Shown here: in pieces, positions 16,255 through 34,273 of the stretch
Layout of the letters: the number at the start of each line of letters is the position of its first letter
How positions within the stretch are numbered: the stretch's first letter is position 1
Notes under the pieces: model-generated
Seen by the model: only the letters and a program-made list of their open reading frames with translations
What the model was told of the DNA's origin: nothing
Database searches by the model: none
Virus record (IMG/VR): IMGVR_UViG_3300028198_000256
Coordinates: 32,001-96,000 of that record
Length of the DNA stretch: 64,000 nucleotides
DNA from: a virus
Direction: 5' to 3' (one strand)
Made by a program: the position numbers and the translations under genes

Positions 16255-17187
16255 TCATAAAAAATCATCCAATGTTGATGTTTTCAATCTTTGTTCTGCA
16301 ATCTCAACATATTCAGGGGAAAGTTCACATCCAATATATTTTTTACCTAGAGATTTACTAACTATAGCGGTAGTTCCAGACCCCATAAATGGGTCTAAAA
16401 CAATTCCGTTTGGTGGACATGTAGTTGAAATTGGAGTTTTTATTAAATCCTGTGGGTATACAGCAAAATGTGCCCCCCTATATGATGTCGTTGCAATATC
16501 CCAAACACTGAACATTGGTCTTGTCGGGCATTTACCAGAATCTATTAATTCTTGATAATCAAAATCCTTTTTTATGTTTAAAGTTTCTCTCATTTTAGTA
16601 TAATGTTTATCTTGATTATCAGAAGATAAACTATACCCCTCTTTTACAGAAGCCTTAGCATCTTTTCGTTTATCTAAATTATTATCACTAAACATTCTAC
16701 GAACACTTACCTCAGCTTGGGGAATCACCATTTTACTTCTATCAAAATAATATCCCTTTAAGTTTTTTACAAACCAAAATATTTTTTCATGATTTGACCA
16801 AAATCTATCTTTTGCTGAGATTGGTTGTGGGTTAGGTTTACTCCAAATTATTTCATTACGAAGATACCAACCACGATCCGACATTGCAATTTCAAATCTT
16901 GACGGAACCTGTAAAAGTTTTTTATTATTATAAGTATCTCCAATATTCACCCAACAAGACCCAGTAGGTTTTAGCACACGATAAACTTCGTCAAATACGT
17001 TACACAAATTTTCAACAAATTCTGTTACGGAATCTTCTATGCCTATCTGTTTTTTGTTTTTATAATCACGGAGATTATAATAGGGCGGAGAGGTGATACA
17101 CATATCTACTGAATTATCTGGCAGTTTTCGCAATGATTCTATATTATCTCCAATGTGGATTATTCCAGTTTCTAGTAAATTTGTCAA
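16255..17187 (-). CDS. DNA methyltransferase, N4-C/N6-A beta class
   Basis: TSPPYY catalytic motif before the DPFMGSGTT SAM motif; ends STLDDFL. Confidence 0.92.
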   Translation of the reverse strand: MTNLLETGIIHIGDNIESLRKLPDNSVDMCITSPPYYNLRDYKNKKQIGIEDSVTEFVENLCNVFDEVYRVLKPTGSCWVNIGDTYNNKKLLQVPSRFEIAMSDRGWYLRNEIIWSKPNPQPISAKDRFWSNHEKIFWFVKNLKGYYFDRSKMVIPQAEVSVRRMFSDNNLDKRKDAKASVKEGYSLSSDNQDKHYTKMRETLNIKKDFDYQELIDSGKCPTRPMFSVWDIATTSYRGAHFAVYPQDLIKTPISTTCPPNGIVLDPFMGSGTTAIVSKSLGKKYIGCELSPEYVEIAEQRLKTSTLDDFL

Positions 17188-19049: not shown

Positions 19050-19949
19050 TTATGTTAAGAAAAAATCATCCAATACAGTTGACGTTGAAGACGTTATATT
19101 ATTATGTTTAATATTATCAACTCCCATTTCAAAATCAGGTCTATTTTTATCCGATTCATTAATAATAATAACATCTTTAAGATCTGTTACATCTTTCCAT
19201 TGTAGTTTATCTTTTTTTGGATAATTCTTAGTCCAATTCATAGACGATAATTTAAGTAATATTTTAGCAGAACGTTTATCTAATGGATATATGTATCTAA
19301 ACATATAACCCTTATATCTACGTATACCACGTTCTTTCATAAATCCTGTGGTCAACCAACTCAACTTATCTTTTTTAAACATATCATCATTACGTCTTTC
19401 CCACTCTACATTTTCTTTACATAAATCTTTACTACTTCTTGGATGTAATTTCTCACCATTTTCCATCATATAAACATCTGTCCAATACCGTTCACCAAAA
19501 TAAAAATTAGATGCTTGATAAACATATCCACATTTACCCATAATTCCATCTGCCATAGTATACAAATATTTACAATTAGTATTCCGTTTAATCCACCTAA
19601 TACTTGATGATATCATGCAAGACCCATATGACTTAGTTCCATTTAATTTAGGTAACAAACACATTTTACCAATTTCAAAATAATAATTAGTCAAAGAATG
19701 TTTATATCCAGAACTCCGAACATTTGGAACATTCAATTCAAACAATTCATCCTTCAACGTTGGTAATATTTTAGCAATAGTATGTCTTGGTCGTGTACCC
19801 CACCCCAATGTCATAACTCCTGATAATTCATCCTTTAAAAAAAACCCAAGATAATGTGTAGTTAGTGCCGGCATAACTGGTGAATAATGATACTTTTCTA
19901 TAAACATAACAGCTGTTATTTTATCAATTTTTTTTACTTCAAACTTCAT
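19050..19949 (-). CDS. Mom-like GNAT-fold DNA adenine modification enzyme
   Basis: FIEKYHYS, GVMTLG, FEIGKMC, LYTMAD...GKCGYVYQASNFYFG, GEKLHPRS; ends VLDDFFLT. Confidence 0.72.
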   Translation of the reverse strand: MKFEVKKIDKITAVMFIEKYHYSPVMPALTTHYLGFFLKDELSGVMTLGWGTRPRHTIAKILPTLKDELFELNVPNVRSSGYKHSLTNYYFEIGKMCLLPKLNGTKSYGSCMISSSIRWIKRNTNCKYLYTMADGIMGKCGYVYQASNFYFGERYWTDVYMMENGEKLHPRSSKDLCKENVEWERRNDDMFKKDKLSWLTTGFMKERGIRRYKGYMFRYIYPLDKRSAKILLKLSSMNWTKNYPKKDKLQWKDVTDLKDVIIINESDKNRPDFEMGVDNIKHNNITSSTSTVLDDFFLT

Positions 19950-21048
19950 AATACTCCATAAGTTCTAATGATTCAGCAACCATTAAATTAGTGATTCTAC
20001 CATTATGTGTATATATACCATTTGTGAAATTAGGATCCACGTTATCAAGACCCATATCAGCCAAAACAGTTATATATGGTAATGTCGCCTTAGTAAGTAT
20101 GTTAGTAGCACTTTTAGGATATGCACCGGGCATATTAGACACACAATAATGAATAACCCCATGGTGCATAAATACAGGGTTCTGATGACTCCTAATATGT
20201 GACGTTTCAATGCAACCACCTTGGTCAATAGACACATCAACCACCACCGAACCGTTCCTCATACTTTTTACCATATCTTCAGTAACAACAATAGGAGATT
20301 TCTTTCCTGGTATTGAAACTGCACCAATAACTAAATCAGCATCTTTAACAGCAGGCTCCAAATTCCATGAAGTGGAACACTTATATTCAATAGAAGTATC
20401 CATATGACCTCTACTCAAATACTCCCAACGATAATCGGTTTCCAACCCTAAAATAATAACATTAGCACCCATCCCATTTGCCATCTCAGCCGCATGTCTA
20501 CCAACAACACCATCACCAACAACTACCACATTACCAGAATTAACACCATTAATTTTTCCTAGTTGTACACCAGACCCATCAAAAAACATTGACTTATCTG
20601 TATACTGAAGATAATAACTACCAATAGTAACCGCCATATTACCAGCAATAGCAGACATAGGTGACAACAACGGTAAATTACCAAAATTATCTGTTATTGA
20701 TTCATATGCTATGGCAGTAGTATTGGTGGATAATAATTTAAGTGTCAGTTCTTTATCTACACCCGCAAGATGAAGATAAGTAAATAATATTTGCCCATTA
20801 AAATATTTGTATTCTTCCACTTGAGGTTCTTTAACTTTAACCACAAGATCCGAATCCCATGCATAAAAGTCGTGGCATATTGTCGCACCGGATGATATGT
20901 AATCATCATCCGAATAACCAGAACCAACCCCAGCTTCAAATGTTACACATACAGAGTGACCTCTATCAACCAATTCACGCACACCATTTGGGGTAATTGC
21001 TACCCTATGTTCGTTTTCCTTTATTTCTTTGATTAATCCAATTTTCAT
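19939..21048 (-). CDS. ald: Alanine dehydrogenase
   Basis: MKIGLIKEIKENEHRVAITP, VKVKEP, FTYLHLA, LPLLSPMS, VDVSIDQGGCIETS, YCVSNMPGA. Confidence 0.95.
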   Translation of the reverse strand: MKIGLIKEIKENEHRVAITPNGVRELVDRGHSVCVTFEAGVGSGYSDDDYISSGATICHDFYAWDSDLVVKVKEPQVEEYKYFNGQILFTYLHLAGVDKELTLKLLSTNTTAIAYESITDNFGNLPLLSPMSAIAGNMAVTIGSYYLQYTDKSMFFDGSGVQLGKINGVNSGNVVVVGDGVVGRHAAEMANGMGANVIILGLETDYRWEYLSRGHMDTSIEYKCSTSWNLEPAVKDADLVIGAVSIPGKKSPIVVTEDMVKSMRNGSVVVDVSIDQGGCIETSHIRSHQNPVFMHHGVIHYCVSNMPGAYPKSATNILTKATLPYITVLADMGLDNVDPNFTNGIYTHNGRITNLMVAESLELMEYYEV

Positions 21049-21652
21049 ATTTAGTCCTCACTGATTCAACTTCCATCAATCTAGGAAGAATTTCATTAAT
21101 AACCCCTATATACAATTCAGATTCAGTAGCACGACAAGCATCACCTAACGATTGCACATCATCATTATCTCTAACTAAAACTAAATTCTGTTTCAATATC
21201 GGTCCAGAATCATATTCATCAGTAACAATATGTACAGTAACTCCTGTAACCTTATCATTAGACTCTAAGACTGATTTATATATATCATCACCAAACATAT
21301 TACCATGTTTAGGCAATAATGATGGATGGATGTTTAATATTCTATTTTCATACCCATTCAATACTATATTATTAACATGTTTCCTGTATCCAGACAACAC
21401 TACCAGATCAGTTGCAACTGATTTTAATTTATTAAAAATAGCATTATCTTCGTCATGTAGATTAGTTTTACCAGATATTATAGAAACATTAATACCATTA
21501 TCATGACACCATTGAACTATAGGAGCATCTTTATTATTACATATAACAACACCAACTTCAGCTACAATTCTCCATGAATTAATTGCTCCTATAACATCCC
21601 TAGCAGCAGTACCACCATCTGACGCCAAAAAACTAATAATTGGTGTCTTCAT
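21005..21652 (-). CDS. purN: Phosphoribosylglycinamide formyltransferase
   Basis: LVVLSGY, ILNIHPSLLPKHG, TGVTVH.V..EYDSGPIL.Q. Confidence 0.85.
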   Translation of the reverse strand: MKTPIISFLASDGGTAARDVIGAINSWRIVAEVGVVICNNKDAPIVQWCHDNGINVSIISGKTNLHDEDNAIFNKLKSVATDLVVLSGYRKHVNNIVLNGYENRILNIHPSLLPKHGNMFGDDIYKSVLESNDKVTGVTVHIVTDEYDSGPILKQNLVLVRDNDDVQSLGDACRATESELYIGVINEILPRLMEVESVRTKYENWINQRNKGKRT

Positions 21653-21656
21653 AATA

Positions 21657-23780
21657 TCACCTCAAATCTTTATCAAAATCATCTACCATAATTGATTCAT
21701 GTTCTAAAATTCCATCTAATTCGCCTTTCAGATTAGACTCATATGCCCTTTCTAAAATATTTAATGCATCCTTTGTATTAGATGATGTAAAAGTTTTATC
21801 TGTCAACCTAGACCTTGCATCAAATCCTAATGCAGATTTAATTGAATTAGGAACATTGACCACCGACTTCACCATTCTACTATTCAACTTATCTGATGGA
21901 CCCTTATATCTTCTACCAAATGGAAATATCAAACGTCTTAATATAAACCCAATGAACTTTGAAGGATAATTGTCTAAAATGTCCTCAAACGATTTCTGTA
22001 TATTATATAATCCAGACTCAGCACCCCATGTAACATATAATATATCATTCTTCTTATCCATATCATCAGTATCTTCGTAACGTTTTAATACCGCAGATGT
22101 CATATACAACTCTGAAAATGCATCTGCAAATCTACCAGTTATTCTTTGTCGTTTCTTAAGATCAGCACCCAACACCGATATACTTATATCAGATAACAAT
22201 GCAAAGTTCTTTGATTCCAATTCAATACGTTTATAATACTTACCAATTTCACATGATGCGTCTTTTGGTTTAGATATAAACATACCACCAGTAATATTAT
22301 GATATAATGACCCAAATATATTACCAATAGTATATTTAAGATGACCCATTAACGCCTTATTAAATGCAATCGCATCACCACATTCAGCAGAAGTTACTTC
22401 ATCTTTTATAAATGGATGACACCGTAAAGATCCTTGAGAAAATACAATTAGAGATCTCGTTAATATATTCGCACCCTCAACAGTATTAGCAATAGGTTGT
22501 GTTATATAATAATTCAATAATAAATTATTAGGACCATCAGATATACCCTTTCCAGCCAAAATGTCCATACCATCAATAATACATTGTCGCATCCTTTCAG
22601 TACATTGATATTTCAACATGGCAGAAATAACAGATGGTTTTTCACCATTTACTATTGCAGTAGTAGTGAGATTACACGCAGCCTCTACAACATAACATTG
22701 TCCAATTATCCTAGACAATGGCTCTTCAATACCTTCCATCTTGGAAATTGGAATTTTAAATTGTTTTCTTATCCTAGAATATGCAGTAGTAACTTTTAAT
22801 GTATGTTTAATACCAGCCATAGATAATGATGGTAATGATATTGCCCTACCAGCCGCAAGACACGCCATTAACATTCGCCAACCCTTTCCTACCCCATCAA
22901 TTCCACCTATAACATGATTCAATGGTAAAAATACATCTTTACCATAATTTGGTCCATTCATAAATGCTTGTCTAGCAGGATAATGTCTGCGTCCTATACG
23001 AACACCCTTAGTATCAGTTGGAACTAATACTAAACTTATACCCTCAACAGGAGGCGAATGCTCAGATTCTTTCAATAACTCATCAGGATCCACAATATGA
23101 CACGCAACACCAAGTAATGTAGATACTGGTCCTAGTGTGATATATCGTTTTTCCCAATTTAATCTAATACCTAATACCTTTTCACCGTCATATTCCCCAT
23201 ATTCAACAACACCATAATCTTCCATCGCCGCAGCATCTGAACCAGAATATGGTCCTGTTAATGCAAATGCCGGTATATCTTTACCTGATGATAATGTAGG
23301 TAACCATTTATCTTTTTGTTCTTGTGTGCCAAACTCATAAAGCAATTCACCAGGACCCAAAGAATTTGGAACCATAGTAGTAATTGCTAATGATATACTT
23401 CTTGATGCTAAAATTGATATGATACACGATTGTGCATATGCTGAAAATTCCAAACCACCATATTCTTTCTTGATATTAAGTGCAAAAAAACCATTATCTT
23501 TTAAATAATCCCACACCTCAACTGGTAAATCTTTATGTATAACATTAACTTCCCAATCAGACACCATTTCACAAACAGTATCAACTTCAGAGTTAATGAA
23601 ATCATGTTCTTCTTGTGTTAATTTAGTTTGTTCTGTATTTAATAATATATCCCAGTTTGGTCTACCACCAAATAACTCAGATTCCCACCATACTGTACCG
23701 GCATCTAAAGCCTCTCTTTCAGTATTTGATATCTTTGGTAATATCTTTTGGAATAATTTCATACCATATTCATTCATCAT
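21657..23780 (-). CDS. fadE: Acyl-CoA dehydrogenase, FadE type (lacks the N-terminal membrane anchor)
   Basis: LPKISNTEREALDAGTVWWE, MVPNSLGPGELL, FALTGPYSGSDA, KRYITLGPV, GRAISLPS, TVEGANILTRSL. Confidence 0.93.
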   Translation of the reverse strand: MMNEYGMKLFQKILPKISNTEREALDAGTVWWESELFGGRPNWDILLNTEQTKLTQEEHDFINSEVDTVCEMVSDWEVNVIHKDLPVEVWDYLKDNGFFALNIKKEYGGLEFSAYAQSCIISILASRSISLAITTMVPNSLGPGELLYEFGTQEQKDKWLPTLSSGKDIPAFALTGPYSGSDAAAMEDYGVVEYGEYDGEKVLGIRLNWEKRYITLGPVSTLLGVACHIVDPDELLKESEHSPPVEGISLVLVPTDTKGVRIGRRHYPARQAFMNGPNYGKDVFLPLNHVIGGIDGVGKGWRMLMACLAAGRAISLPSLSMAGIKHTLKVTTAYSRIRKQFKIPISKMEGIEEPLSRIIGQCYVVEAACNLTTTAIVNGEKPSVISAMLKYQCTERMRQCIIDGMDILAGKGISDGPNNLLLNYYITQPIANTVEGANILTRSLIVFSQGSLRCHPFIKDEVTSAECGDAIAFNKALMGHLKYTIGNIFGSLYHNITGGMFISKPKDASCEIGKYYKRIELESKNFALLSDISISVLGADLKKRQRITGRFADAFSELYMTSAVLKRYEDTDDMDKKNDILYVTWGAESGLYNIQKSFEDILDNYPSKFIGFILRRLIFPFGRRYKGPSDKLNSRMVKSVVNVPNSIKSALGFDARSRLTDKTFTSSNTKDALNILERAYESNLKGELDGILEHESIMVDDFDKDLR

Positions 23781-24069
23781 ATATCATACCTCTAAAATAA
23801 AATAAAATCCACCACCCATACTATTATATATAACATTAATGGTATACCAAATGTCAATACAGACATCCAAACCGACTTAGTAACAGATTTACACAACCCA
23901 TTACATTGATAATTAATCTTTTCCCTTATTCTCTCCATCCTTGACTGTACTAATTCTTCCACTTTCTTTATTCTCCGTTTTTTGTTTATTATTAAATATC
24001 ATATCCCAATTATCTCTATATTGTTTATTACTTACTTTAGATTTTATAGAATCTCCTGTTATATCATTC

Positions 24070-24405
24070 TTAGCTACCATTTTCTATTTTTCTGTTTAAT
24101 TTTTCTATTTTTCTGTTTAATTTGTCGCGATTCCGTTTAAGAGATTTAATCTCACGTTTTAAGTTTCTCACATCATCCAAATACCGGTTTGCATCATTTA
24201 TATCACCACATTTAGCCTCCATACGATTACCAATGCTCTGTAATTCCTCCAGTAATCCCATAACAATTGAAAAGTTTCGTGTTTTATAACAAGAACGCAT
24301 TTCATCTATCACAGTACAAAAATATCTATTTGCCATAAATTCCTCCTCATCTATCCAAATTTCTTTTTTCATATTAAGCAACCATTCTTGCAAATTCTTG
24401 TGCAA
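24070..24405 (-). CDS. Hypothetical coiled-coil protein
   Basis: NRYFCTVIDEMR...LLEELQ..GNRMEA. Confidence 0.55.
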   Translation of the reverse strand: MHKNLQEWLLNMKKEIWIDEEEFMANRYFCTVIDEMRSCYKTRNFSIVMGLLEELQSIGNRMEAKCGDINDANRYLDDVRNLKREIKSLKRNRDKLNRKIEKLNRKIENGS

Positions 24406-26554
24406 TCAACTTGTTAGATTTCTTGTTCTTTTGGAACTTTTTAAAATCACGTTTGATTGTATTCATTCTCTTACGGTCTGTTGTAAACAAAGGGTCATCA
24501 TCAGCAACTGTTACAAATTCATCATCTTCTGCCTGTAACCGTTTATCATGAACCACAATGTAACGGTCATAAAACTCATTATCCGAATCAATTTTATCAT
24601 GAACAATATATCCCACTTTTGGATTAACCAATTTACGATATGATGTTAAGAAAAAACCAATTACATTATATCGTTTTCGTAATGCATCAAACATCGCCTT
24701 TTGATATAATTTAGTTCTTGAATAATATGAATAAATACCACCCACGTTCGCCTCAAGTCTACCATAACCTTCAACATCAAAAACTACAACCTTTTGATCA
24801 CCATAACCCAAACTTTTAGTTCTGATATCTTGTGCCTGACCATCAGTCAGGAAAACCACATTCATCTTTTCAGTATTATGTTTCTTAACAAAATCATCCG
24901 CAAGAATTAATGAGTAAGCAGCAGTTTCAATTAATGGTGTTCCACCCATTGAAAACAGTTTCTCTTTCATCCAAGCATTACCACCTGTCAATGTTTCAGA
25001 AGAAAACATAACTCGTTGAGTCATTTTGTTCTGTTTACTCGTTGTCCAACTAGAATCGGCAATTTTAATCATTCCTAATGCATAATTGGCAAGGTCATAT
25101 TTACCATAATCTTCACCTTTACCAAACATGTTTCTTTTGCCATTATCTTTCCATTTTTTACCATTAGTAGTAAATGTATATAATTCATATGGAATACCAA
25201 CACGTTTCGCAAACATAATCAAAATAACAGACTGTTTTACGGTTTCATATAAACGACCCCACATAGAACTAGAGAAATCAACATACATCAATAATCCATG
25301 ATTCTTAGCATCAGGAAATGACATGATTGACTTGAAAATATGATCGTCTAACTTATATTGCCACAATTTATCCACATCAATTGAACCACTTGTAGACTGT
25401 CTTGCCTTTCTTGATTCCATTGCAGATTTACGAAGTTCAAATTGTTGAACCATAGCATTTACTGCGGGTTTAACATCACGAATAAACTCTTTATATCTTA
25501 CATTAATGAACTCATCATGATAAATTTGCATAGCGGGTTGATTATTCTTCATTTCTAAGAATTCAGTATAACTTCTCTCCACCTCTTCATCAGTATATAA
25601 AAACTCATTAACCAATTGTTCCTTTGTGAATTTAAGATATGAAGTACCACTACCCTCATTAATCATCTTATTTTCATTCTTTCTAAATGCATCATCAGTA
25701 ACAGAATGATATGGATCTTCACCAGTAGTATCACCAGTATCAGAAAGTCCACCACCAGAAGAAGAAGAAACATTATCTTCTTCAACACTATTATCATCAG
25801 TAACATTAGCATCAGCATCAGTATCAGAAGAACCAGATTCTAATGAGTCATCACCATCTTCTGAAGATTCAGTATCACCAACATCAGAATTTAAACTTTC
25901 AGACAATCCAGAAGAATCTTCAGATTCTTCAGATTCTTCTGAATCACCAGAACCATCACTTGATTGTTGCTGCTGTTGCTGTTGTGGTTGCTGCTGTTCA
26001 TCAAGAAACTCCATCAACTCACGTGAAACTCTAACTGTATCATCCCAAGTATCAATTTGAAATACTTTAGACATCATAACAGATTCTTTAAATGAAAACT
26101 TAATATCAATAGTTTTTGATAACTTAGCCTTCAAATTCAATCTATCAAGAAATCCCAAAGTATCAACATCAACATCTTTAATACCAAAGAAATTATCTGC
26201 AACTAAATGACGATATCCTTTTAGGAAATCATTAATTAATCCAGGATAAAATTCACGAACAAGACGTTCAATACGAACATCTTCAACAATATTTAAAATA
26301 GAATGTGGTATATCTTCAATATCAGGTAATAACTTATTTATACTTTCATCATGACTGAAAATACTAGGTGTATATAATGCATGACCAACCTCATGTCCAA
26401 TGAACAGAGTGGCAGCATCTTTATATTCTTCTTTCAATAATGGCAATCTAAGAATACGATTAGTAGGGTCAAATGAAGCAGTTCTAAAATTACCCTCAAT
26501 AACTTCTAAATCTTCTCTTGCCATTAATTTGGAAAGTAGTGAAGTGTTTAACAT
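24374..26554 (-). CDS. CobT-like metallopeptidase-VWA protein, partner of the MoxR/CobS ATPase
   Basis: HEVGHALYT, NIVEDVRIE, acidic/polyQ linker, MIDAS DFSSS...GGTPL...FLTDG. Confidence 0.85.
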   Translation of the reverse strand: MLNTSLLSKLMAREDLEVIEGNFRTASFDPTNRILRLPLLKEEYKDAATLFIGHEVGHALYTPSIFSHDESINKLLPDIEDIPHSILNIVEDVRIERLVREFYPGLINDFLKGYRHLVADNFFGIKDVDVDTLGFLDRLNLKAKLSKTIDIKFSFKESVMMSKVFQIDTWDDTVRVSRELMEFLDEQQQPQQQQQQQSSDGSGDSEESEESEDSSGLSESLNSDVGDTESSEDGDDSLESGSSDTDADANVTDDNSVEEDNVSSSSGGGLSDTGDTTGEDPYHSVTDDAFRKNENKMINEGSGTSYLKFTKEQLVNEFLYTDEEVERSYTEFLEMKNNQPAMQIYHDEFINVRYKEFIRDVKPAVNAMVQQFELRKSAMESRKARQSTSGSIDVDKLWQYKLDDHIFKSIMSFPDAKNHGLLMYVDFSSSMWGRLYETVKQSVILIMFAKRVGIPYELYTFTTNGKKWKDNGKRNMFGKGEDYGKYDLANYALGMIKIADSSWTTSKQNKMTQRVMFSSETLTGGNAWMKEKLFSMGGTPLIETAAYSLILADDFVKKHNTEKMNVVFLTDGQAQDIRTKSLGYGDQKVVVFDVEGYGRLEANVGGIYSYYSRTKLYQKAMFDALRKRYNVIGFFLTSYRKLVNPKVGYIVHDKIDSDNEFYDRYIVVHDKRLQAEDDEFVTVADDDPLFTTDRKRMNTIKRDFKKFQKNKKSNKLIAQEFARMVA

Positions 26555-26585
26555 TTAATTTACCTCTTTATTAACTTATATAGAG

Positions 26586-26614
26586 AGTATATCATACTTT
26601 AACCGATATGTCAA
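26586..26614 (-). promoter_or_regulatory. sigma70-type promoter for the CobT-like gene
   Basis: TTGACA-17-TATACT with extended TG. Confidence 0.75.
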
Positions 26615-26622
26615 GAACTATT

Positions 26623-27498
26623 TTATAAAAATTCATCCAATGTTGATACGTTACTCTTATAATTCATCAATAACAATTCCTTTCTTTTCTTTTGATTCTC
26701 CACATATGACGTTAACTGATTATTCATGGTGTATGTGAGATCCCATTCCTCTTGAGTCCATTCACTATACCATTCACGCAGAGTTGGATTGGAATTATAT
26801 GTAATCATACACGTATTACCAGACTTTGATACCTTTTCATAGAATTCTCTATGATTAAATCCTTTATGCATCGAACCATCCTTTCCATATAAAGAATCCT
26901 TGATATCATATGGCGGATCCAGAAACAAAAATACATTCGGGTCATCATCAATTAATTCAGAATAATCTAGGTTCGTGATTTTCCAATTCTTGATAATCTT
27001 TCCGAATATTGTTAACGATTCTATTACCCTAAAGTTGAAACAATCTCTCATTGCCCATGTTGACATAGTACCAGATTCAGTTAAACCAGAGAAAGACATT
27101 CTATTCATAGCATACCATCTCCATCCAACCTCAAATGGGTCTGTCTGATCTCCTATCTCCGATTTCATTTCATTGAACAATTCACGACTCTTGTCCACAT
27201 CATCTCCTACTGATTCCTTCTTTTTCTTTAAAATATTGACTAATTGTTCGGTATCACTCTGCAAAGTAATCCAGAAATAATATAGATTCTGATACTTATC
27301 ATTTATATGAATGGGAATATTTGGGAATAAACGTGCAAATGCCAAGGAAGGAGACCCCCCACCACCGAAAGCATCTCGGTACTGGGTAATCTCCTTTATA
27401 TTGGCTGGAAGTTTGGTATCATGAAACAAATACTTCATTGCCTTTGATTTACCACCTGGATACCTTAGTGGTGTTTTATAGTTGTTTAACGACCTCAC
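26623..27498 (-). CDS. Dam-family (D12 class) DNA adenine methyltransferase
   Basis: TPLRYPGGKSK, FGGGGS, FLFLDPPY, ITYN, ELLLMNY; ends STLDEFL. Confidence 0.9.
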   Translation of the reverse strand: MRSLNNYKTPLRYPGGKSKAMKYLFHDTKLPANIKEITQYRDAFGGGGSPSLAFARLFPNIPIHINDKYQNLYYFWITLQSDTEQLVNILKKKKESVGDDVDKSRELFNEMKSEIGDQTDPFEVGWRWYAMNRMSFSGLTESGTMSTWAMRDCFNFRVIESLTIFGKIIKNWKITNLDYSELIDDDPNVFLFLDPPYDIKDSLYGKDGSMHKGFNHREFYEKVSKSGNTCMITYNSNPTLREWYSEWTQEEWDLTYTMNNQLTSYVENQKKRKELLLMNYKSNVSTLDEFL

Positions 27499-28595
27499 TA
27501 TTTGCTATTTACCTCTTCCAACATCCAATCTTCTAAAATAACAGACTGTTCCTTTGGTAATCCATCCTTCGTTTCAATTGGTGAAATATCTTGATGAAGA
27601 AACCCCTTAAACACTATAGGTAAATCAAAAACATACTCTTGACCCGTAGTTTTCTCATAAAACTCTTTAGCAAACAACAAAACATGTTTTTTAAAACTTT
27701 TTAACCACGCCATCCTTTGTCTTTTAAGAACGTCAGATGCCGGCGATGGGTCTTCTATAAACCCTCGGATTTCTATTGGAATATACACACCATCAACTTT
27801 AGATACCTTCTCATTAACAATTAATGCCATACAATCATGCAATAATGGTTTAAATGTGCCTTGGGGTTTAACATAACCACATTTTCCAGATTCCTGTTCA
27901 TTAACAGATCCCTTATATGGCAACGTCTTTTCCTTACAGAAAGCGTTGGCTGAATCACTATCCCATGTTTTAAGTGTAACATGTCCGCTATCACATGCTC
28001 TATACTTTTTAAGTATCAAATTACGATGTTTTGTATCCTTACCAGGAGTCAATTTGATAATAAGATCTTTAATTGCGATTTGTTCTGGGTCTACCAACTT
28101 ATCAGCAGTAATAGTGTTTTGCTCAACACACCTCTTAACAGAATTAACTGTATCTTTAATCCTGTTAATTTTCTTTGGATTGCCATTATTTGAATTGTGT
28201 TTTGCAATTTCTCTAAATAATGGAGTTCTATAAACTACCTTATCAAAAGGTAAACAATCCCACTGCGGAATCTTTGCCGCCTCGTAACGGTGAAACCCAG
28301 TAGTACCCTTATTACCATCACGTGAGTCTTCATATTGCAACGGTGGTTCACCATGATCCCAATTTTTAGCTAAAAAAGATTCCCCAATTTCTGATATATT
28401 TTCCTTAATATTTTCTTCAACCTTGTTTTGGTCATTGACATCAAACCTAACTTTGTTTAAGTTCATAACATGTCTTTTCAAAAATTGCACTCCCGGCTCT
28501 CCATACCATTTTTCCCCATTGGGACCTATGCCATAAATATATTCAGGTGGACACCTTTTTAATGAGTCTTTTAAATCAAAATTTAATTCTAACAT
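27498..28595 (-). CDS. Hypothetical protein with ParB/Srx-like N-terminal domain
   Basis: EPPL...TGFHRYEAA. Confidence 0.5.
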   Translation of the reverse strand: MLELNFDLKDSLKRCPPEYIYGIGPNGEKWYGEPGVQFLKRHVMNLNKVRFDVNDQNKVEENIKENISEIGESFLAKNWDHGEPPLQYEDSRDGNKGTTGFHRYEAAKIPQWDCLPFDKVVYRTPLFREIAKHNSNNGNPKKINRIKDTVNSVKRCVEQNTITADKLVDPEQIAIKDLIIKLTPGKDTKHRNLILKKYRACDSGHVTLKTWDSDSANAFCKEKTLPYKGSVNEQESGKCGYVKPQGTFKPLLHDCMALIVNEKVSKVDGVYIPIEIRGFIEDPSPASDVLKRQRMAWLKSFKKHVLLFAKEFYEKTTGQEYVFDLPIVFKGFLHQDISPIETKDGLPKEQSVILEDWMLEEVNSK

Positions 28596-28759
28596 TTTCT
28601 TTCCTTCTAATAAAGAGGTCTACTGACCAAATGATAAGGACATCACTGACATCCTTTTAATAAAAAGTATTATCTTTCACTGAAACTTTCACTGAAGATT
28701 AATACTAACTTTGTTCTTATTTTTTATAACTCATTGAGAAATAAGAAACTCAATTTAAA

Positions 28760-28834
28760 TGGAGCGGACGGGTCGGAATCAAACCGCCTCTTTCTGTATG
28801 GTATACAGATATTCTATCATTAAATTACACCCGC
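28760..28834 (-). tRNA. Atypical tRNA-Gly, anticodon ACC, CCA encoded
   Basis: GCGGGTG/CGTCCGC acceptor, U73 then CCA, anticodon arm TCTGT-ATACCAT-ACAGA; D-loop lacks GG, T-loop TTTGATT, bulged A in the T-stem. Confidence 0.8.
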
Positions 28835-28863
28835 AATATTATTTTAACTTAGTACTTATAATG

Positions 28864-28892
28864 ATCATAACACATAATGTCGGAATTGTCAA
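28864..28892 (-). promoter_or_regulatory. sigma70-type promoter just upstream of tRNA-Gly(ACC)
   Basis: TTGACA-17-TATGAT. Confidence 0.75.
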
Positions 28893-29320
28893 GTTTTTAA
28901 CACCGTCACATTTCCCTCAATAACCTTTACTGTGTTTTCTTGTCTCCACGTATATCTGTCATCAAATTTATGTCCACATTTTTTATAATCATCCCACTTC
29001 ATACATAAAATATCCTCTGTCAATTTACCACCACCTTCACCTTCAATTATCGGTTGTATCATCATTCCCATACTTCACCTGTCATATTTTAATTTGTGTC
29101 TTCTTTACTAATGGATATACTATATCTGTATTACTAAAACTAGGAATCTTCTCCAACAATCTAGAAGTCCAAACTACTAAAATTATTAATGATAAAAATA
29201 AAGAAAGTATAATTATTAACTTATAATCACCCCACCCCATATCAGAATCAATATAATGTATTCGATTATTTTTCGTCCGTGTAATCATAAATACTCCTTT
29301 TTTTTATAAAGTTGTATTAG

Positions 29321-29366: not shown

Positions 29367-29882
29367 TTAAGTTTTACACTTAGATGAGTGAACATCCACC
29401 GTTTCCTTCACACACGTTAATGATTCAATCGTAACTTCTCCTGGATATGGCCAAGTTTGTCTTGGTGGCAATTTCCCCACCTGACTCCCATTATCATACC
29501 ACCGTTCACCATATGCCATTTGATTAACAGGGTCTACCGTATCAAGAAAAGTAACTACTGTGGGGAAATACCCACTTTCAATTAACTGCAAATGATATTC
29601 CCAAGTAACTGTACCATATGCAACTATTATAACGTTATCACCAACATCACATAATTTTGCTGCGGCACCATTCACTGAAATAGTAAAAGATCTTTCATCG
29701 GGGATTGCATATGTTGTGAATCTCTCACCATTATTAATATTATATATTTCAATTTGTTGATAAGGTAATATATTCGACTTCTCTAATATATCATTGGAAA
29801 TACCACAAGAACCCTCATAATCAATATCACATTCTGTAATTGTTGCACCGTGTATTTTTGATTTTAATATCTGTATTTCCAT
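29367..29882 (-). CDS. panD: Aspartate 1-decarboxylase with C-terminal extension
   Basis: LKSKIHGATIT, YEG|SCGI self-cleavage site, NGERFTTYAI, NGAAA...GD.VII.AY. Confidence 0.9.
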   Translation of the reverse strand: MEIQILKSKIHGATITECDIDYEGSCGISNDILEKSNILPYQQIEIYNINNGERFTTYAIPDERSFTISVNGAAAKLCDVGDNVIIVAYGTVTWEYHLQLIESGYFPTVVTFLDTVDPVNQMAYGERWYDNGSQVGKLPPRQTWPYPGEVTIESLTCVKETVDVHSSKCKT

Positions 29883-29884
29883 AA

Positions 29885-30322
29885 TTATCCAACCGACCGA
29901 CTAACAAACGATTCCATACACGTTAATACACTCTCACTAAAATTCCTATGAGCATCACTTAACCCCTTTTGACCAAATTCACGCTTTAATCTATACCACA
30001 TATCTTTAGGAGTAAGTTCTTCCATAGTATGAAGTTCTTTATTAAATTTAGAAGAATAGTTCTCGGTAACTGTTTTAAATTTAACTAAATCTGAATATAA
30101 TCCATATTCTTTACCACGTCTTGGATCAAACGTAACATATCCAGACATATTCTTCCCAGATACATCAACCACACACTTACTAAATGACCTAGGCTCAATT
30201 GAATAATCTATAAGGTCTTGTTCATTCTCAAATAATTTATATACGGCATCTTCATACTTATCTTTGTTTTCAGAACACCCAACCAAAAATAATACCATAA
30301 ATACCAACACAACTTTCTTCAT
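29885..30322 (-). CDS. Lipoprotein
   Basis: Signal peptide with lipobox LVGC. Confidence 0.75.
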   Translation of the reverse strand: MKKVVLVFMVLFLVGCSENKDKYEDAVYKLFENEQDLIDYSIEPRSFSKCVVDVSGKNMSGYVTFDPRRGKEYGLYSDLVKFKTVTENYSSKFNKELHTMEELTPKDMWYRLKREFGQKGLSDAHRNFSESVLTCMESFVSRSVG

Positions 30323-30687
30323 ATCACACTCCCATTTTGTTCAATCATAAAATCATAATATAATACATATTCAAACGAATAAGCATAATCTTCATCTAAT
30401 TCTCTTAAATTTATATACTGATATACATGAACCATCTCATGCATAACCGTACTAATTATTGTACCCCTATCCATATCACGATCAATGTATATATCATATG
30501 AACTCCTATCATCTGGGTCGCATAATGCATATCCACGTAATGGTCCACCGGGTTCATTACTTAAATCATCAACATAAATTTTAATTTCAATATCATCTGG
30601 TATATCTAAACGATAACATACCCACTCAATGACTGCCTTAAATACAGACACATAATAATCATTAACGTCATCGTCATACGATACCAC
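30319..30687 (-). CDS. Small zincin-type metallopeptidase
   Basis: TVMHEMVHVYQ...EDYAY. Confidence 0.7.
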   Translation of the reverse strand: MVSYDDDVNDYYVSVFKAVIEWVCYRLDIPDDIEIKIYVDDLSNEPGGPLRGYALCDPDDRSSYDIYIDRDMDRGTIISTVMHEMVHVYQYINLRELDEDYAYSFEYVLYYDFMIEQNGSVI

Positions 30688-30693
30688 TTACAC

Positions 30694-31860
30694 TCAACGT
30701 AAATCCACGCCAATTGCTTCAGATATATTATTATAACCATCACGTCTAAGTAATTCTACAAGTCCTATATTAATTTCAGCTGAAATTTGAGGTCCGTGAA
30801 ATATCATACCAGTAATCAAATGTATTAATGTCGCACCACTTCTTATTTTCAAATAAGCATCTTCAGCAGTATCACACCCACCTATACCTATAACTATAAA
30901 TTTATATTCATTATCTTTAACATGTTGTCCACATACCTTAATTATATGATTAGTCATAGGACGTAATATATGTCCACTTAAACCACCACGGTCATCTGGC
31001 ATAACTCGTTTTTCTATCTTACCACCATGTATGACATATGTAACCTTATCATCATCGGGTATCAATTCACGTTTTACTGTAAGATTACAAGTCAAAATAC
31101 CATTAATACCATACGTATGCATAACATCTATCATCTGACAGATTTCTTCATCTGTATGATCTGGACCAATCTTACAATATACAGGATATTCATTCAACCC
31201 CATCAATTCTCTTACACTCTTAACCTTTACTAACAATTCTGTTAAATTTTCCATATCAAAAAAGGGATTAGATACCCCCAAATTAGGACAACTAAGATTA
31301 ATAGTAGTATAATCTCCATATGGAGACAATCGTTTAAATGAAGTTAATAAATCATCTATAACATCATCCTTATCAGATACACCGTTTGTTGCAGAAACTG
31401 ATACACCACAAACACCATCGGCATGTTTCCAATCAGGGGCAACACGGTCTGCCACATGTAATGAACCAGAATTATTCAACCCATACCAAACATTAATAGA
31501 TTGTGACTTAACCGCTCTCCATAATCTAACCGGTGGATTACCATCATGTGGTTCTTTTGAAAATGAACCAAGTTCAATACCAGAAAATCCTAAATCACGT
31601 ATGACAGGTGGCAATACCCCATACTTATCAAATCCAGCAGAAATCAACAATGGATTACTATAATGAACACCATTTACACCTTGAGATAACATAGTATTAT
31701 CATACCTATATAAATATCTCAATAACTTTTTACTATATGGGATACGTTGAACCCATCCTATAATATTTTTAACTACATCGTGTGCCGTTTCAGGACACAA
31801 TTTAAACAATATAGGTCGTAATAACCACTTATAAACAATCCTTTGCATTCTATACTTCAT
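30694..31860 (-). CDS. pyrD: Dihydroorotate dehydrogenase (quinone-type architecture)
   Basis: PETAH, SAGFDK, GNPPVRLWR, NLSCPN, KIGPD, GGLSG, IGIGG, GATLIHLITGMIFHGP. Confidence 0.9.
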   Translation of the reverse strand: MKYRMQRIVYKWLLRPILFKLCPETAHDVVKNIIGWVQRIPYSKKLLRYLYRYDNTMLSQGVNGVHYSNPLLISAGFDKYGVLPPVIRDLGFSGIELGSFSKEPHDGNPPVRLWRAVKSQSINVWYGLNNSGSLHVADRVAPDWKHADGVCGVSVSATNGVSDKDDVIDDLLTSFKRLSPYGDYTTINLSCPNLGVSNPFFDMENLTELLVKVKSVRELMGLNEYPVYCKIGPDHTDEEICQMIDVMHTYGINGILTCNLTVKRELIPDDDKVTYVIHGGKIEKRVMPDDRGGLSGHILRPMTNHIIKVCGQHVKDNEYKFIVIGIGGCDTAEDAYLKIRSGATLIHLITGMIFHGPQISAEINIGLVELLRRDGYNNISEAIGVDLR

Positions 31861-31869
31861 AATATTCCT

Positions 31870-32220
31870 TTATAATTTATTTCCTGGATTATGCTCTGAC
31901 GGCAATTCTTCATATTTCTCTTCTGGCATATGATTTCCACCACATCCACCCTCTATATGGTGGTTAGCGCCACAACCAAATTCACCAGTAAATGTATATT
32001 CGCCCAATCTTTGTGTCGTTATGTCCTTAACATTCTTAATATCATTCTTGAGTTTTGCTTCAATAGCAGACATATCTATTTCAGTTTGTTTTACATTATT
32101 TGTAACGTCAACTCCACGTTGAATATACTCTCCAACTAAAGAATTCCAATTAATATCATATGCACCATATACACCAACTAACGTACCTACCGTTAATAAC
32201 ACCTTATTTCGTTTTTTCAT
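31870..32220 (-). CDS. Membrane-anchored hypothetical protein
   Basis: N-terminal TM; GCGANH/GCGGNH repeat. Confidence 0.5.
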   Translation of the reverse strand: MKKRNKVLLTVGTLVGVYGAYDINWNSLVGEYIQRGVDVTNNVKQTEIDMSAIEAKLKNDIKNVKDITTQRLGEYTFTGEFGCGANHHIEGGCGGNHMPEEKYEELPSEHNPGNKL

Positions 32221-32222
32221 GA

Positions 32223-32471
32223 CTAACCTCTTTTCAAATTATCAATATGATAAACCCCATTAGTTTTCTCAAATTCAATCAACACATTATTTTCATCAAG
32301 TATTCGTTTAATAACACCACCACTTCCACTATTACTATCCCAATCCTTAAATGCCAAACACGACATACCCACTTTAACTGCATGTGTATTAAAAAAATCA
32401 ACTTCAAGCTTATCTTGAATCACTTGCAATTCTTCTTCACTTGGTTCTTTATCTTTACCAAATTTAAACAT
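32223..32471 (-). CDS. Hypothetical protein
   Basis: 82-aa ORF. Confidence 0.5.
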   Translation of the reverse strand: MFKFGKDKEPSEEELQVIQDKLEVDFFNTHAVKVGMSCLAFKDWDSNSGSGGVIKRILDENNVLIEFEKTNGVYHIDNLKRG

Positions 32472-32480
32472 AATTATTCC

Positions 32481-32966
32481 TTAACATCTGTTATTATATC
32501 TATAAATACCATCATCAATTACTCTCTTAGCCTCTGAATTATCACCCCACCCATTAACTTTTGCCCACTTGTTTTCATCTAAATCCTTATAATGTTCAAA
32601 GAAATGATATATACTCTCCAACTGGTCAATCGGAACATCTATAATATCATACCAATCAGAATATACCTCATCATCAGGTACTGCCAATATTTTAGGATCG
32701 TCACCCGACTCATCTACCATATGGAGAACCCCAATGACATTACATAATATTTTGCAATTAGGTATTAATGGATATGGTGTTATTACCAAAACATCAACAG
32801 CATCATTATCACCACCTATTGTATTTGGCAGACAACCATAATTGCAAGGATAGTGCATTGGTGTGTGTAAAAATCTATCAAATCTAAGCACACCCGTTTT
32901 ATGATCAACTTCATATTTAATATGTGAAGTTCCCATAGACATTTCAATCAATACGTCAATATTCAT
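32481..32966 (-). CDS. ppa: Inorganic pyrophosphatase (family I)
   Basis: KYEVD, DRFL...YPCNYG, DNDAVDVL, DESGDDPKILAV, FFEHYKDL. Confidence 0.93.
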   Translation of the reverse strand: MNIDVLIEMSMGTSHIKYEVDHKTGVLRFDRFLHTPMHYPCNYGCLPNTIGGDNDAVDVLVITPYPLIPNCKILCNVIGVLHMVDESGDDPKILAVPDDEVYSDWYDIIDVPIDQLESIYHFFEHYKDLDENKWAKVNGWGDNSEAKRVIDDGIYRYNNRC

Positions 32967-33135
32967 TTTTTTGTATATTCATTTAATACCTTTTCATTAA
33001 TAATGCCCATTTTATACAATTCATGTAATGTAACATTTACAGCTAAATACCAACCATGTCTAAACCCTGCCCTGAATGAAACCCCAGCACATATTCCTAA
33101 TAAAAATATCCATATTATATCTTCCATATCTATAT

Positions 33136-33777
33136 TTAGGAGTCATGATATATTATAAGAATGTTATGTAACCATTCAACCTCATAATATTCTGCAAATT
33201 CGTGTATTCCAGAAGATAAAAAATACAAAGCAAATATCGGAAATACATATGATGAAGCTTTAAATATATATTTCGTATTAAAATTGTTAATACGTGTTCC
33301 AATATATACTAATATACCAATACCAATCAAAAATCCAAATAACATACCAATAACATCTGATAATACTGATGTATATAATGAGAAATAAAATAACACAACT
33401 TCTACACCTTCTCTCAATATAGTAAAAAACGATACTAAGACAAATGCCATGGAATTATTATATTGTAAATGTTCGTTAATATGTTTATTTGCATTAACAC
33501 ACCAAACAGAAATATATAATAACATCAACCCAGTTATAACCTGTACATAACCCTCAAATAACTCTAAATCAGAATGTTCAAATATATCAACAAATAAATA
33601 AGCAACCAAGATTGATGACAGTATACCTAAAAATGAACCCAAATATACATATCTCTTATGTTCATATTCCGTCAACTTTAATATTATCATCAAAAGTAAT
33701 AATATCTCTATACCTTCTCTAACAATAATAAATAAAGAACTACTTAATGACGGTAAAAAATAATCCCCAAATTCCAT
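33136..33777 (-). CDS. FTR1-family iron permease
   Basis: Two RExxE motifs (REGIE, REGVE), multiple TM helices, GIHEF. Confidence 0.85.
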   Translation of the reverse strand: MEFGDYFLPSLSSSLFIIVREGIEILLLLMIILKLTEYEHKRYVYLGSFLGILSSILVAYLFVDIFEHSDLELFEGYVQVITGLMLLYISVWCVNANKHINEHLQYNNSMAFVLVSFFTILREGVEVVLFYFSLYTSVLSDVIGMLFGFLIGIGILVYIGTRINNFNTKYIFKASSYVFPIFALYFLSSGIHEFAEYYEVEWLHNILIIYHDS

Positions 33778-33786
33778 AATATACTC

Positions 33787-34104: not shown

Positions 34105-34244
34105 TTAGAAGTAGGATGTCGTTTCTTTGTATATGACCCATGCCCACTTTGTTTACCAAATGATTTCCCACGGGCATTCTTTTGATCACTTCTAAATGGT
34201 TTAGCTCTTTTACTCATAAAACTCTCCTTTTAATATTTAACACC

Positions 34245-34273
34245 ATTATAACAGATTTTTAACCAAATGTCAA
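34245..34273 (-). promoter_or_regulatory. Consensus sigma70 promoter
   Basis: TTGACA-17-TATAAT with extended TG. Confidence 0.8.

Follow-up and report, generated by a model that had tools for sequence, protein, structure and literature searches.

A Mom-type DNA modification gene and a linked tRNA-Gly-like RNA with a bulged T-stem in a marine T4-like phage: a candidate virus-encoded glycine carrier

Dedicated tRNAs and tRNA-shaped RNAs are known from several systems outside ordinary decoding. Staphylococcus has a non-proteinogenic tRNA-Gly that feeds the FemXAB peptidoglycan ligases, which are GNAT-fold aminoacyl-transferases working outside translation; its D/T-arm is altered in ways thought to weaken the interaction with EF-Tu. 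The mRNA of ThrRS contains a tRNA-like operator to which the enzyme binds, and the tRNA-like structures of plant viruses are aminoacylated. The translation of mom in phage Mu is tightly controlled by Com, the gene of which is annotated. The donor used by Mom was identified only recently and is Gly-tRNA-Gly (PMC13219725; bioRxiv 10.1101/2023.03.24.534169), which confirms the donor named in the original prediction for the present locus. The chemistry of Mu Mom requires this glycyl-tRNA-Gly donor, and Mom is selective for the tRNA-Gly body; Mu Mom accepts all three host isoacceptors, so that in principle it can do without a private donor (Silva et al., Nat Commun 2026, PMC13219725). No tRNA gene is present in Mu, whose Mom has been described as scavenging, or co-opting, host tRNA; a mom-linked tRNA-Gly-like RNA is not mentioned in PMC13219725.

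The window, which is the whole stretch of 64,000 nucleotides of viral DNA analysed here, differs from Mu in that the phage encodes a linked tRNA-Gly-like RNA, a trait that over 100 further phages and prophages have as well. The window RNA is encoded on the same strand as mom, 8.8 kb upstream of it, and neither abuts nor overlaps the gene (Table 1). The Mom homolog matched PF25680, the family of Mu Mom, with 156.9 bits (cut-off 27.1, E 7e-46) over residues 3–245 and profile positions 2–202, and was also assigned to phrog_1384; the Mom-like GNAT predicted at this position was thereby borne out. All five active-site residues of Mu Mom (H58, Y59, S124, D149 and Y159) are identical in the window Mom, and they are invariant or nearly so among 88 Mom homologs. 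Two further residues essential in Mu, R111 and R151, are both replaced. R151 is I in the window Mom, at a position unconserved across the 88 homologs, and R111 is K, as in 11 of the 88, which make up a marine clade. The change R111K strongly impaired Mu Mom (PMC13219725), and the lysine counts against the window Mom using the RNA as a donor.

The window Mom also differs from Mu Mom by a C-terminal L-D-D-F-F tail. Both DNA methylases of the window share its terminal motif, STLD(D/E)F(F/L) (tails KTSTLDDFL and NVSTLDEFL), which is missing from all five neighbouring non-DNA enzymes compared. The tail common to Mom and the two DNA methylases is thus real. It had been predicted to be of the clamp type, and binding to the sliding clamp is a function that the tail may have.

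Table 1. Features of the mom and tRNA-like RNA region, in coordinates of the window
Feature	Position	Strand	Basis and remarks
Mom homolog, 299 aa	19050..19949	(-)	PF25680; tRNA-dependent adenine N6 glycyl-transferase family; C-terminus ...STSTVLDDFFLT
Dam-type (D12) N6-adenine DNA methyltransferase	26623..27498	(-)	PF02086, E 9e-24; tail ...NVSTLDEFL
Predicted ParB/sulfiredoxin-fold protein, 365 aa	27498..28595	(-)	AF2 model and Foldseek; recurrent neighbour of Mom and the RNA
Present/absent cassette (promoter, tRNA-like RNA and ParB-like ORF), 1394 bp	27501..28894		Contigs lacking the cassette
Leader between RNA and ParB-like gene	28596..28759	(-)	Read from sequence: hairpins, one followed by a U-run, then a Shine-Dalgarno; described as transcribed
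tRNA-Gly-like RNA, 75 nt, anticodon ACC, encoded CCA, extra A in 3′ strand of T-stem	28760..28834	(-)	Cloverleaf fold; matches the family signature exactly
Sigma-70-type promoter TTGACA-17-(TG)TATGAT	28864..28892	(-)	About 30 nt upstream of the RNA; 11/12 matches, extended -10

The identity set of bacterial GlyRS consists of G1-C72, C2-G71, G3-C70, U73, C35 and C36, and the window RNA was found to hold the whole set. Its T-stem is irregular (GGCGG/CCG-A-CC), with one extra A in the 3′ strand. The anticodon loop AUACCAU has 7 nt and retains U33 and A37, but A32 is complementary to U38, and the RNA departs from a canonical loop and anticodon as defined by Y32, U33 and R37 with GCC, UCC or CCC. 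With such a loop and with ACC cognate to GGU, decoding by the window copy is conceivable. Much of this had been predicted: the tRNA with its own promoter, the retained GlyRS identity elements and CCA, the ACC anticodon and the bulged A of the T-stem were all recovered in the 75-nt fold. The prediction erred on the elbow, where it listed the lack of a D-loop GG and the T-loop TTTGATT as separate broken features. Together they form a compensated A19-U56 pair in place of G19-C56, with G18-U55 kept, so that the elbow is intact; the same covariation is seen across the family.

ARAGORN called no tRNA here by default and found the window RNA at -ps80, and the Rfam tRNA model (RF00005) scored it at 29.9 bits, the gathering score being 29. 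The window RNA matched covariance model R1, constructed from 46 further members of the family, over its full length with 72.5 bits (E 3.5e-16). The near-consensus promoter (TTGACA-17-TGnTATGAT) is kept in contigs L010 and L011, and equivalents precede the RNA in L016 and L070. The RNA of L010 and L011 is identical to that of the window, which is uninformative on selection because the flanks are equally identical. The phage collection gave no match to the region (megablast), the RNA (blastn) or the 365-aa protein (tblastn), and the exact 29-nt T-arm and acceptor sequence of the window was absent from the viral contigs searched. RNA-library contigs, which are assembled and do not allow strand, true ends or expression level to be read, leave 28838–28894 uncovered, a weak hint only. 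Contig ends coincide with the 5′ end of the RNA in one study, which in assembled contigs is likewise only a hint.

Relatives of the RNA were searched for with the T-arm signature GGCGG-N7-CCG-A-CC, containing the extra A and including U73-CCA; the T-arm and U73-CCA are invariant in the sample because both are part of this pattern. The signature was found in 106 viral contigs (108 loci) and, as true elements, at 14 loci in contigs of bacterial genomes. Mom is encoded at 101 of the 108 viral loci and 12 of the 14 genome loci, overall 113 of 121, and at 108 of 121 family loci the RNA directly abuts or overlaps mom. In the controls, Mom was encoded at 1 of 109 canonical tRNA-Gly loci (Fisher p ~1e-52) and at 0 of 13 spurious matches to the signature (p ~6e-6). 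The co-occurrence of T-stem-bulged tRNA-Gly with Mom, which had been proposed as a check on the original prediction, is therefore strongly positive. Ten out of ten Mom ORFs sampled from family loci matched PF25680 above threshold. The RNA-linked Moms are highly diverse, with a median identity of 25%, and their loci range from 32 to 69% GC; genome G005 has three Mom copies, each with its own RNA. At L280, a locus found through Mom alone, the RNA is present with a different T-stem sequence, again with an extra A. In very diverse phages and prophages, these data show, the RNA is evolutionarily coupled to Mom, which establishes a functional link between the two.

Many Mom genes lack the family RNA, namely those of Mu, Melnitz, an Edwardsiella phage, L001–L009, L281 and L282, and this counts against a donor role. 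A covariance-model match near the Melnitz mom was rejected as a family member, being a normal tRNA-Trp. In L001–L009, which hold the nearest Mom relatives, there is no tRNA within 10 kb of mom, and this reflects a lineage without the RNA, not a failed test of co-occurrence. The bulged tRNA-Gly-like RNAs apparently constitute a large family that has not been described, and standard tRNA finders overlook or misassign more than 100 of them.

Within the family, 92.8% of stem cells are paired, compared with 75% in shuffled sequences (0/500) and 42–52% in slid ones. The first three pairs of the acceptor stem, G1-C72, C2-G71 and G3-C70, are fixed (G1C2G3 in 81 of 82 members) while pairs 4–7 vary, and covariation is also seen at the elbow pairs 18x55 and 19x56. 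Neither C35 nor C36 belonged to the search pattern, yet the former is invariant and the latter at least 90% conserved; N34 varies freely (U in 57, A in 20, G in 3 and C in 1). The anticodon loops are mostly of 5, 6 or 8 nt; a canonical one was found in 8 of 82 family members (about 10%) versus 98 of 108 controls, and ARAGORN calls a tRNA-Gly for 9 of the 82. This comparison of sequences shows selection on the cloverleaf and elbow, and fixation of the identity elements but not of the decoding features. Contig L015 carries a canonical tRNA-Gly(UCC) which shares its acceptor stem with the degenerate element of L016; the family therefore clearly descends from a normal tRNA-Gly.

The reading that we favour, with a probability of roughly 0.6, is that the 75-nt RNA is the glycyl donor of Mom and evades EF-Tu, in which case the window would encode a Mom hypermodification system with its own glycine carrier. 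The RNA would be transcribed from its own promoter and fold into the tRNA L-shape; host GlyRS would charge it with glycine, by virtue of the full identity set and the encoded CCA; and Mom would take the glycyl group from it for N6-adenine modification, as in the published Mom chemistry. The extra A, hallmark of the family, lies in the helix read by EF-Tu, and together with the non-standard anticodon loops would keep the glycyl-RNA pool outside translation, as the staphylococcal cell-wall tRNA-Gly is kept for the Fem ligases. We infer the charging of the RNA, its use by Mom and its avoidance of EF-Tu and the ribosome from these features. The staphylococcal case is alike in having a dedicated tRNA-Gly for a GNAT-fold aminoacyl-transferase outside translation; its tRNAs, however, are products of cellular genes with a UCC anticodon and a regular cloverleaf, whereas the family RNAs are viral, physically fused to mom, and have an extra T-stem A and anticodon loops of odd size, and the acceptor is DNA.

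At Mom-bearing loci, 56 RNAs are located 5′ of mom with a median gap of -1 nt, 52 are located 3′ of mom or overlap it, and the remaining 5 lie no more than 300 nt from mom in convergent orientation. RNAs of the 5′ class are traversed by the mom frame in fixed phase (nearly every gap is 2 mod 3), and the mom start is upstream of or inside the RNA, often with an in-frame ATG 9 nt before it; an SD-like motif precedes the upstream ATG in only 9 of 29 cases. The fixed phase of the 5′ class is compatible with a cis-regulatory role as well. At loci of the 3′ class, the frame of mom continues into the RNA. With such overlaps in both classes, translation of mom and the folding or processing of the RNA must interfere with each other.

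This arrangement favours a regulatory role, in which the RNA would mimic tRNA-Gly and control Mom without serving as its substrate, either as a Mom-bound translational operator or autoregulatory decoy, or as an RNA antidote restraining a toxic enzyme; the control of Mu mom by Com supports such a need. The E. coli thrS operator and the 3′ tRNA-like structures of plant viruses likewise place a tRNA shape in mRNA, beside a coding region or overlapping one, but they have no sequence relationship to the family, which has a complete cloverleaf with encoded CCA and includes free-standing genes. In the window, L016 and L070 the RNA stands alone behind a promoter of its own, and copies on the opposite strand also occur; these cannot be cis operators of mom. 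Regulation gives no account of promoter-borne copies as far from mom as that of the window, of those upstream of another gene (L016, L014 and L070) or of those on the opposite strand, and has no obvious need for C35-C36, full covariation of the elbow or an encoded CCA. We consider it unlikely as a replacement for the donor role, with which it is compatible, and it may be an added layer of that role.

A decoding function deserves less credit. GGU is the commonest glycine codon of the phage (57%), and an ordinary, if unusual, phage tRNA supplementing GGU reading would agree with the 7-nt loop with U33 and A37, the compensated elbow and an Rfam score just over threshold. This is improbable in view of the hallmark bulged T-stem and the 72.5 bits on a Mom-linked model, the A32-U38 pair that can close the anticodon loop, and the 90% of the family lacking a canonical loop; ACC, to our knowledge, does not occur naturally as a glycine anticodon in bacteria. 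Other tRNAs are nearly absent from the family loci (only 4 in 121). Ordinary phage tRNAs, which serve in codon supplementation or escape from anticodon nucleases, are likewise phage-borne and tRNA-derived with their own promoter, whereas the family RNAs are single, lie outside tRNA clusters and are bound up with a single enzyme gene. A tRNA pseudogene in decay, or a tRNA attachment-site remnant near mom by chance, could explain the rejection by default ARAGORN and the acceptor stem shared between L015 and L016, but is already disfavoured and highly improbable against compensatory changes in all variable stems and tertiary pairs with fixed identity elements, retention of the whole element, 5′ half included, alongside Moms with 25% identity, its presence with a promoter in a lytic-type T4-like phage and the fixed-phase overlap with the mom ORF.

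If many Moms bring their own carrier, this would explain how free Gly-tRNA is available to a late-expressed enzyme despite the sequestering of aminoacyl-tRNA by EF-Tu, and the family would offer a natural minimal scaffold of 68–76 nt that is GlyRS-chargeable and orthogonal to translation. No earlier case would then exist of a viral tRNA reserved for a non-ribosomal reaction on DNA. The T-stem with its bulged A lends itself directly to testing EF-Tu discrimination, the overlap of mom ORF and RNA is an unusual dual coding, and presence of the family RNA strongly marks active Mom systems.

The distance of about 9 kb between the two genes, which had been given as a caveat, was resolved through relatives. 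L016, from the window's own lineage, has the order Mom, promoter, tRNA-like RNA and ParB-like gene, with the RNA about 70 nt after mom, and the RNA touches mom in 108 other loci. In contigs of three runs from two studies, position 27500 is joined straight to 28895, and the cassette is missing. The AlaDH, PurN-like and ACAD genes between the RNA and mom were considered as parts of the modification pathway and rejected; because they are missing from every other Mom locus examined, we regard them as auxiliary metabolic genes that were inserted. In the window phage, about 8 kb of inserted metabolic genes have parted mom from the RNA/ParB cassette.

The 365-aa protein had no match in Pfam or PHROG. 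A first AF2 model from 9 sequences (pLDDT 50) was discarded; with the model retained (pLDDT 89.7), Foldseek found ParB-CDP (E 2e-6) as well as ParB-CTP, KorB, Noc, Srx and cyanophage ParB/Srx proteins. G100 and R103 of a G-x-x-R nucleotide-binding signature are invariant in 58 homologs, of which Pfam ParB_N matches only 2. Based on the predicted fold and this signature, the protein is assigned to the ParB/Srx superfamily. Searches of viral contigs for related loci with the 365-aa protein alone, or with alignment A1, gave no relatives. The ParB-like gene adjoins Mom in L012, L013, L016, L001, L002, L009 and five Collinsella-type loci, and the ParB/Srx-fold protein is a third recurrent partner in the marine T4-like lineage. 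Tentatively, the window could represent a widespread, undescribed class of virus-encoded, enzyme-private aminoacyl-carrier RNAs, derived from tRNA-Gly, chargeable by host GlyRS but hidden from EF-Tu and the ribosome through the bulge of the T-stem and anticodon loops of altered size; these may often be dual-coded in the mom ORF, so that a transcript yields either enzyme or donor, and in several lineages a ParB-like DNA clamp may be the third component of DNA glycylation. The start of the Dam-type methyltransferase gene overlaps the stop of the ParB-like gene, and a leader hairpin with a T-run similar to that of the window is kept upstream of the ParB-like gene in L012–L016.

The enzyme described as Mom-like in the original prediction is clearly homologous to Mom (PF25680, E 7e-46; phrog_1384). 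It is encoded in a virus record of 115 kb with 32% GC, of which the window covers bases 32001-96000 and in which the genes around mom and the tRNA-like RNA all lie on the minus strand. Alignment with Mu Mom from NC_000929, whose residue numbers agree with those of PMC13219725, revealed that H58, Y59, S124, D149 and Y159 are all kept. Mu R111 is replaced by K, as throughout the marine clade of the window Mom, and the R151 position has no family-wide conservation among Mom proteins. The C-terminal sequence S-T-(V)-L-D-(D/E)-F-(F/L) is common to the window Mom, an N6_N4 methylase and a Dam-type methylase, and is absent from five neighbouring non-DNA enzymes of the window; in Mom relatives, that of phage Melnitz included, the C-terminus reads (T/N)-L-(D/E)-x-F-(F/L/M). 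The shared tail resembles T4-type clamp-binding tails, and may tether these enzymes to the sliding clamp.

In agreement with the original prediction, the glycyl donor of Mom is Gly-tRNA-Gly; the enzyme attaches the glycine to adenine N6 in double-stranded DNA, and the adduct then rearranges on the base (PMC13219725). All three E. coli tRNA-Gly isoacceptors are active as donors and Gly-tRNA-Ala is inactive (PMC13219725). That paper portrays Mom as a user of host tRNA and makes no mention of any tRNA encoded by a phage or linked to mom; no report of such a tRNA for Mom was found in the literature searched.

Coordinates of the features (window positions unless a locus or accession is named)
Feature	Position	Strand	Remark
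N6_N4 methylase	16255-17187	-	
Mom homolog	19050-19949	-	
Auxiliary metabolic block	19939-23780 and 29367-37889	-	Dense
Dam-type methylase	26623-27498	-	
ParB-like protein	27498-28595	-	365 aa
Promoter, RNA and ParB-like ORF	27501-28894		1394 bp
Leader before ParB-like start	28596-28759		
tRNA-like RNA	28760-28834	-	75 nt, encoded CCA
tmRNA, permuted (two-piece)	38736-39181	-	Rfam RF04321, 89.9 bits
tRNA-Met(CAU)	56829-56904	-	
Two tandem tRNA-Gly-like genes	L238:2003-2157		Directly after mom
tRNA-Trp of phage Melnitz	L018:4991-5064; MZ577097.1 ~68570-68643		CCA anticodon, G73
Mom frame open through RNA	L156:1775-1850		5′ class
Mom frame open through RNA	L237:11665-11740		5′ class

ARAGORN called no tRNA at the position of the window RNA at default settings; at lowered stringency it drew the predicted cloverleaf, a tRNA-Gly(ACC) with an irregular T-stem. 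The Rfam tRNA model scored 29.9 bits (gathering score 29), with one base inserted on the 3′ side of the T-stem. The predicted promoter, close to consensus and with an extended -10, is situated some 30 nt upstream. In assembled RNA-library contigs of one study, pieces stop at 28825-28837 and start again at 28895, the former being a weak hint of the RNA 5′ end. The sole canonical tRNA of the genome is a tRNA-Met(CAU), of elongator or Ile2 rather than initiator type, since it has G1-C72 and its anticodon stem lacks three consecutive G-C pairs.

A loose tRNA-Gly pattern matched 120 viral loci, 109 of them canonical tRNA-Gly according to ARAGORN. One non-canonical match, in an unrelated GC-rich phage (L118), has a T-arm identical to that of the window, GGCGG-N7-CCG-A-CC, and there the mom stop codon falls within the first bases of the RNA. 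A search with this T-arm followed by N7-TCCA matched 106 viral and 27 genome contigs; a proper acceptor stem was present in 14 of the latter, whose hosts belong to many phyla. Pooled, the viral and genome loci gave 82 distinct RNAs of 68-77 nt, in which T-arm and TCCA are invariant because the sample was drawn by exactly those positions. R1, a covariance model of 46 members, scored 72.5 bits on the window RNA and detected an RNA beside each of the three Mom copies in genome G005. A further one was detected at a locus reached through Mom alone (L280), where the T-stem is GCGGG/CCCG-A-C; the same extra A in a different stem makes the bulge a hallmark independent of the search pattern. Rfam has no dedicated family, and 5 of 16 members reached its generic tRNA threshold. 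Locus L238 carries two tandem genes of the bulged type, the second of which (T-loop TTCGACA) was missed by the pattern, which means that the family extends beyond the sample. Genome G005 is a Dehalococcoidia MAG (Mom loci L273, L278 and L279), and one of its three RNAs has U1-A72 and a 3′ end CCG instead of CCA.

The co-occurrence test proposed in the original prediction was strongly positive: Mom was found at 101 of 108 viral and 12 of 14 genome loci, and all ten Mom representatives sampled were above the PF25680 threshold. Among the controls, Mom occurred at only 1 of 109 canonical tRNA-Gly loci, at a distance of 2.8 kb (Fisher p ~1e-52), and at 0 of 13 loci of spurious pattern matches (p ~6e-6). 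The RNA-linked Moms comprise 77 distinct proteins with a median identity of 25%, from loci of 32-69% GC. In our judgement, functional coupling of the RNA family with Mom is established. The RNA accompanies a subset of Mom genes, being absent at those of Mu, Melnitz, an Edwardsiella phage, L001-L009, L281 and L282; its prevalence among all Mom genes comes from rough sampling only. About 930 nt upstream of mom, phage Melnitz (Methylophilales) has a tRNA-Trp that is missing from the feature table of the record, as is locus tag _125, and that overlaps an annotated hypothetical CDS. Six other phage loci (L025, L059, L078, L119, L087 and L104), in which Mom was not found, carry a tRNA-Gly(UCC) with a canonical anticodon loop and odd D-arms, missed by ARAGORN at default settings.

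At 56 of 121 loci the RNA adjoins the 5′ side of mom in the same orientation (median gap -1 nt to the aligned Mom domain), at 52 it directly follows mom or overlaps its end, and at 5 it is convergent within 300 nt; the stretch covered lacked Mom at 8, several at contig edges. A trans-acting glycyl carrier is the most economical mechanism to fit the 5′-fused, 3′-fused and convergent arrangements as well as the free-standing one of the window with its own promoter. We give a probability of about 0.6 to the RNA being such a carrier, charged by GlyRS, used by Mom and kept out of translation, much as the private Gly-tRNA donor first proposed.

A purely regulatory or decoy mimic of tRNA-Gly is considerably less probable, and its main evidence is the overlap of the RNA with the mom frame. 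Loci of the 5′ class mostly lack a start codon in the interval from the CCA end to the Mom domain, and their mom frame keeps a constant register with the RNA (gaps nearly all 2 mod 3). Often there is an in-frame ATG 9 nt ahead of the RNA, or else a start within it; the ORF therefore reads through the RNA, an apparent case of RNA/protein dual coding. In this class, for example at L156 and L237, no stop codon interrupts the frame anywhere along the tRNA-like sequence, and the phase is always the same one. The N-terminal stretch so encoded has a conserved-looking ...PLFQxExGG(S/A)IPTSPLQ. At many 3′-class loci the mom frame enters or crosses the RNA. A single transcript should consequently allow either RNA processing or mom translation but not both, and the overlap supports a regulatory layer.

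Covariation was tested on an ungapped alignment of 46 family RNAs of 76 nt each. Pairing was found in 92.8% of alignment cells, versus 75.4% in shuffles (0/500 shuffles) and 42-52% with partners slid, with compensatory double changes at 14 pairs. G1-C72, C2-G71 and G3-C70 are fixed, in contrast to the freely varying acceptor pairs 4-7. Neither C35, which is invariant, nor C36, which is at least 90% conserved, was part of the search pattern. Position 34 is variable (U 57, A 20, G 3, C 1). The elbow covaries at 18x55 (G18-U55, 31; A18-G55, 11) and 19x56 (G19-C56, 39; A19-U56, 4). The window RNA has G18-U55 and A19-U56, so the missing D-loop GG and the T-loop TTTGATT, originally counted as separate defects, are one compensated tertiary contact. 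The anticodon loop is canonical in only 8 of 82 members versus 98 of 108 controls, and its extra closing pair covaries (UA 19, CG 14); ARAGORN called tRNA-Gly for 9 of 82 and two- or four-base anticodons for 15 others. The GlyRS identity set, CCA end and L-shape are thus retained and decoding geometry is not. For the window copy, an ordinary GGU-decoding tRNA is very improbable, although GGU makes up 57% of phage glycine codons and the 7-nt loop of this copy contains U33 and A37. A pseudogene or the remnant of an attachment site is hardly credible.

As a glycyl carrier, the RNA would be charged with glycine by GlyRS and serve Mom in trans, the extra A in the T-stem and the re-sized loops excluding the pool from translation. 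EF-Tu reads the T-stem helix, and the staphylococcal cell-wall tRNA-Gly species parallel the proposed exclusion. A dedicated non-proteinogenic tRNA feeding an aminoacyl-transferase is a known kind; here it would be viral and widespread, with its gene fused to that of a DNA-modifying enzyme.

Along transcription, the promoter and RNA are followed by genes for a 365-aa protein, the Dam-type methylase, a phrog_459 protein, a 111-aa ORF, a 707-aa FadE-like acyl-CoA dehydrogenase, a PurN-like formyltransferase, an alanine-dehydrogenase-family protein and Mom. The last three before Mom belong to an auxiliary metabolic block that continues upstream of the promoter, with PanD, dihydroorotate dehydrogenase, FTR1 permease, PRPP synthetase, a ThDP enzyme and a class-3 lipase among its members. 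None of these metabolic genes was found at any other Mom locus examined, and they were therefore treated as insertions.

The 365-aa protein had no family assignment from sequence. An AF2 model from 58 homologs (pLDDT 89.7) matched ParB-CDP, KorB, Noc, Srx and uncharacterised ParB/Srx proteins of T4-like cyanophages in Foldseek, predicting a ParB/sulfiredoxin fold; G100 and R103 are invariant among homologs. In metagenome relatives L012, L013 and L016 (protein 53-58% identical) mom is immediately upstream of the ParB-like gene, the order in L016 being Mom, promoter, degenerate tRNA-Gly(UCC)-like RNA and ParB-like gene. L014 has the degenerate RNA upstream of the ParB-like gene, and L015 a canonical tRNA-Gly(UCC) immediately downstream, with the acceptor stem of the L016 RNA. 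In L001, L002 and L009, Mom directly follows a distant ParB-like relative, and the order ParB-like, Mom, convergent RNA is seen at five GC-rich loci, one of them in a Collinsella aerofaciens genome. Marine RNA-library contigs (3 runs, 2 studies) join 27500 directly to 28895, which makes promoter, RNA and ParB-like ORF a discrete cassette, present or absent at strain level. The leader before the ParB-like start, kept in L012-L016, contains an AT-rich hairpin, a T-run and a second hairpin, and may be an attenuator. The window also encodes a permuted tmRNA, which, with the marine metagenome relatives and the T4-like genes in relatives, speaks for a marine host among the alphaproteobacteria or cyanobacteria.
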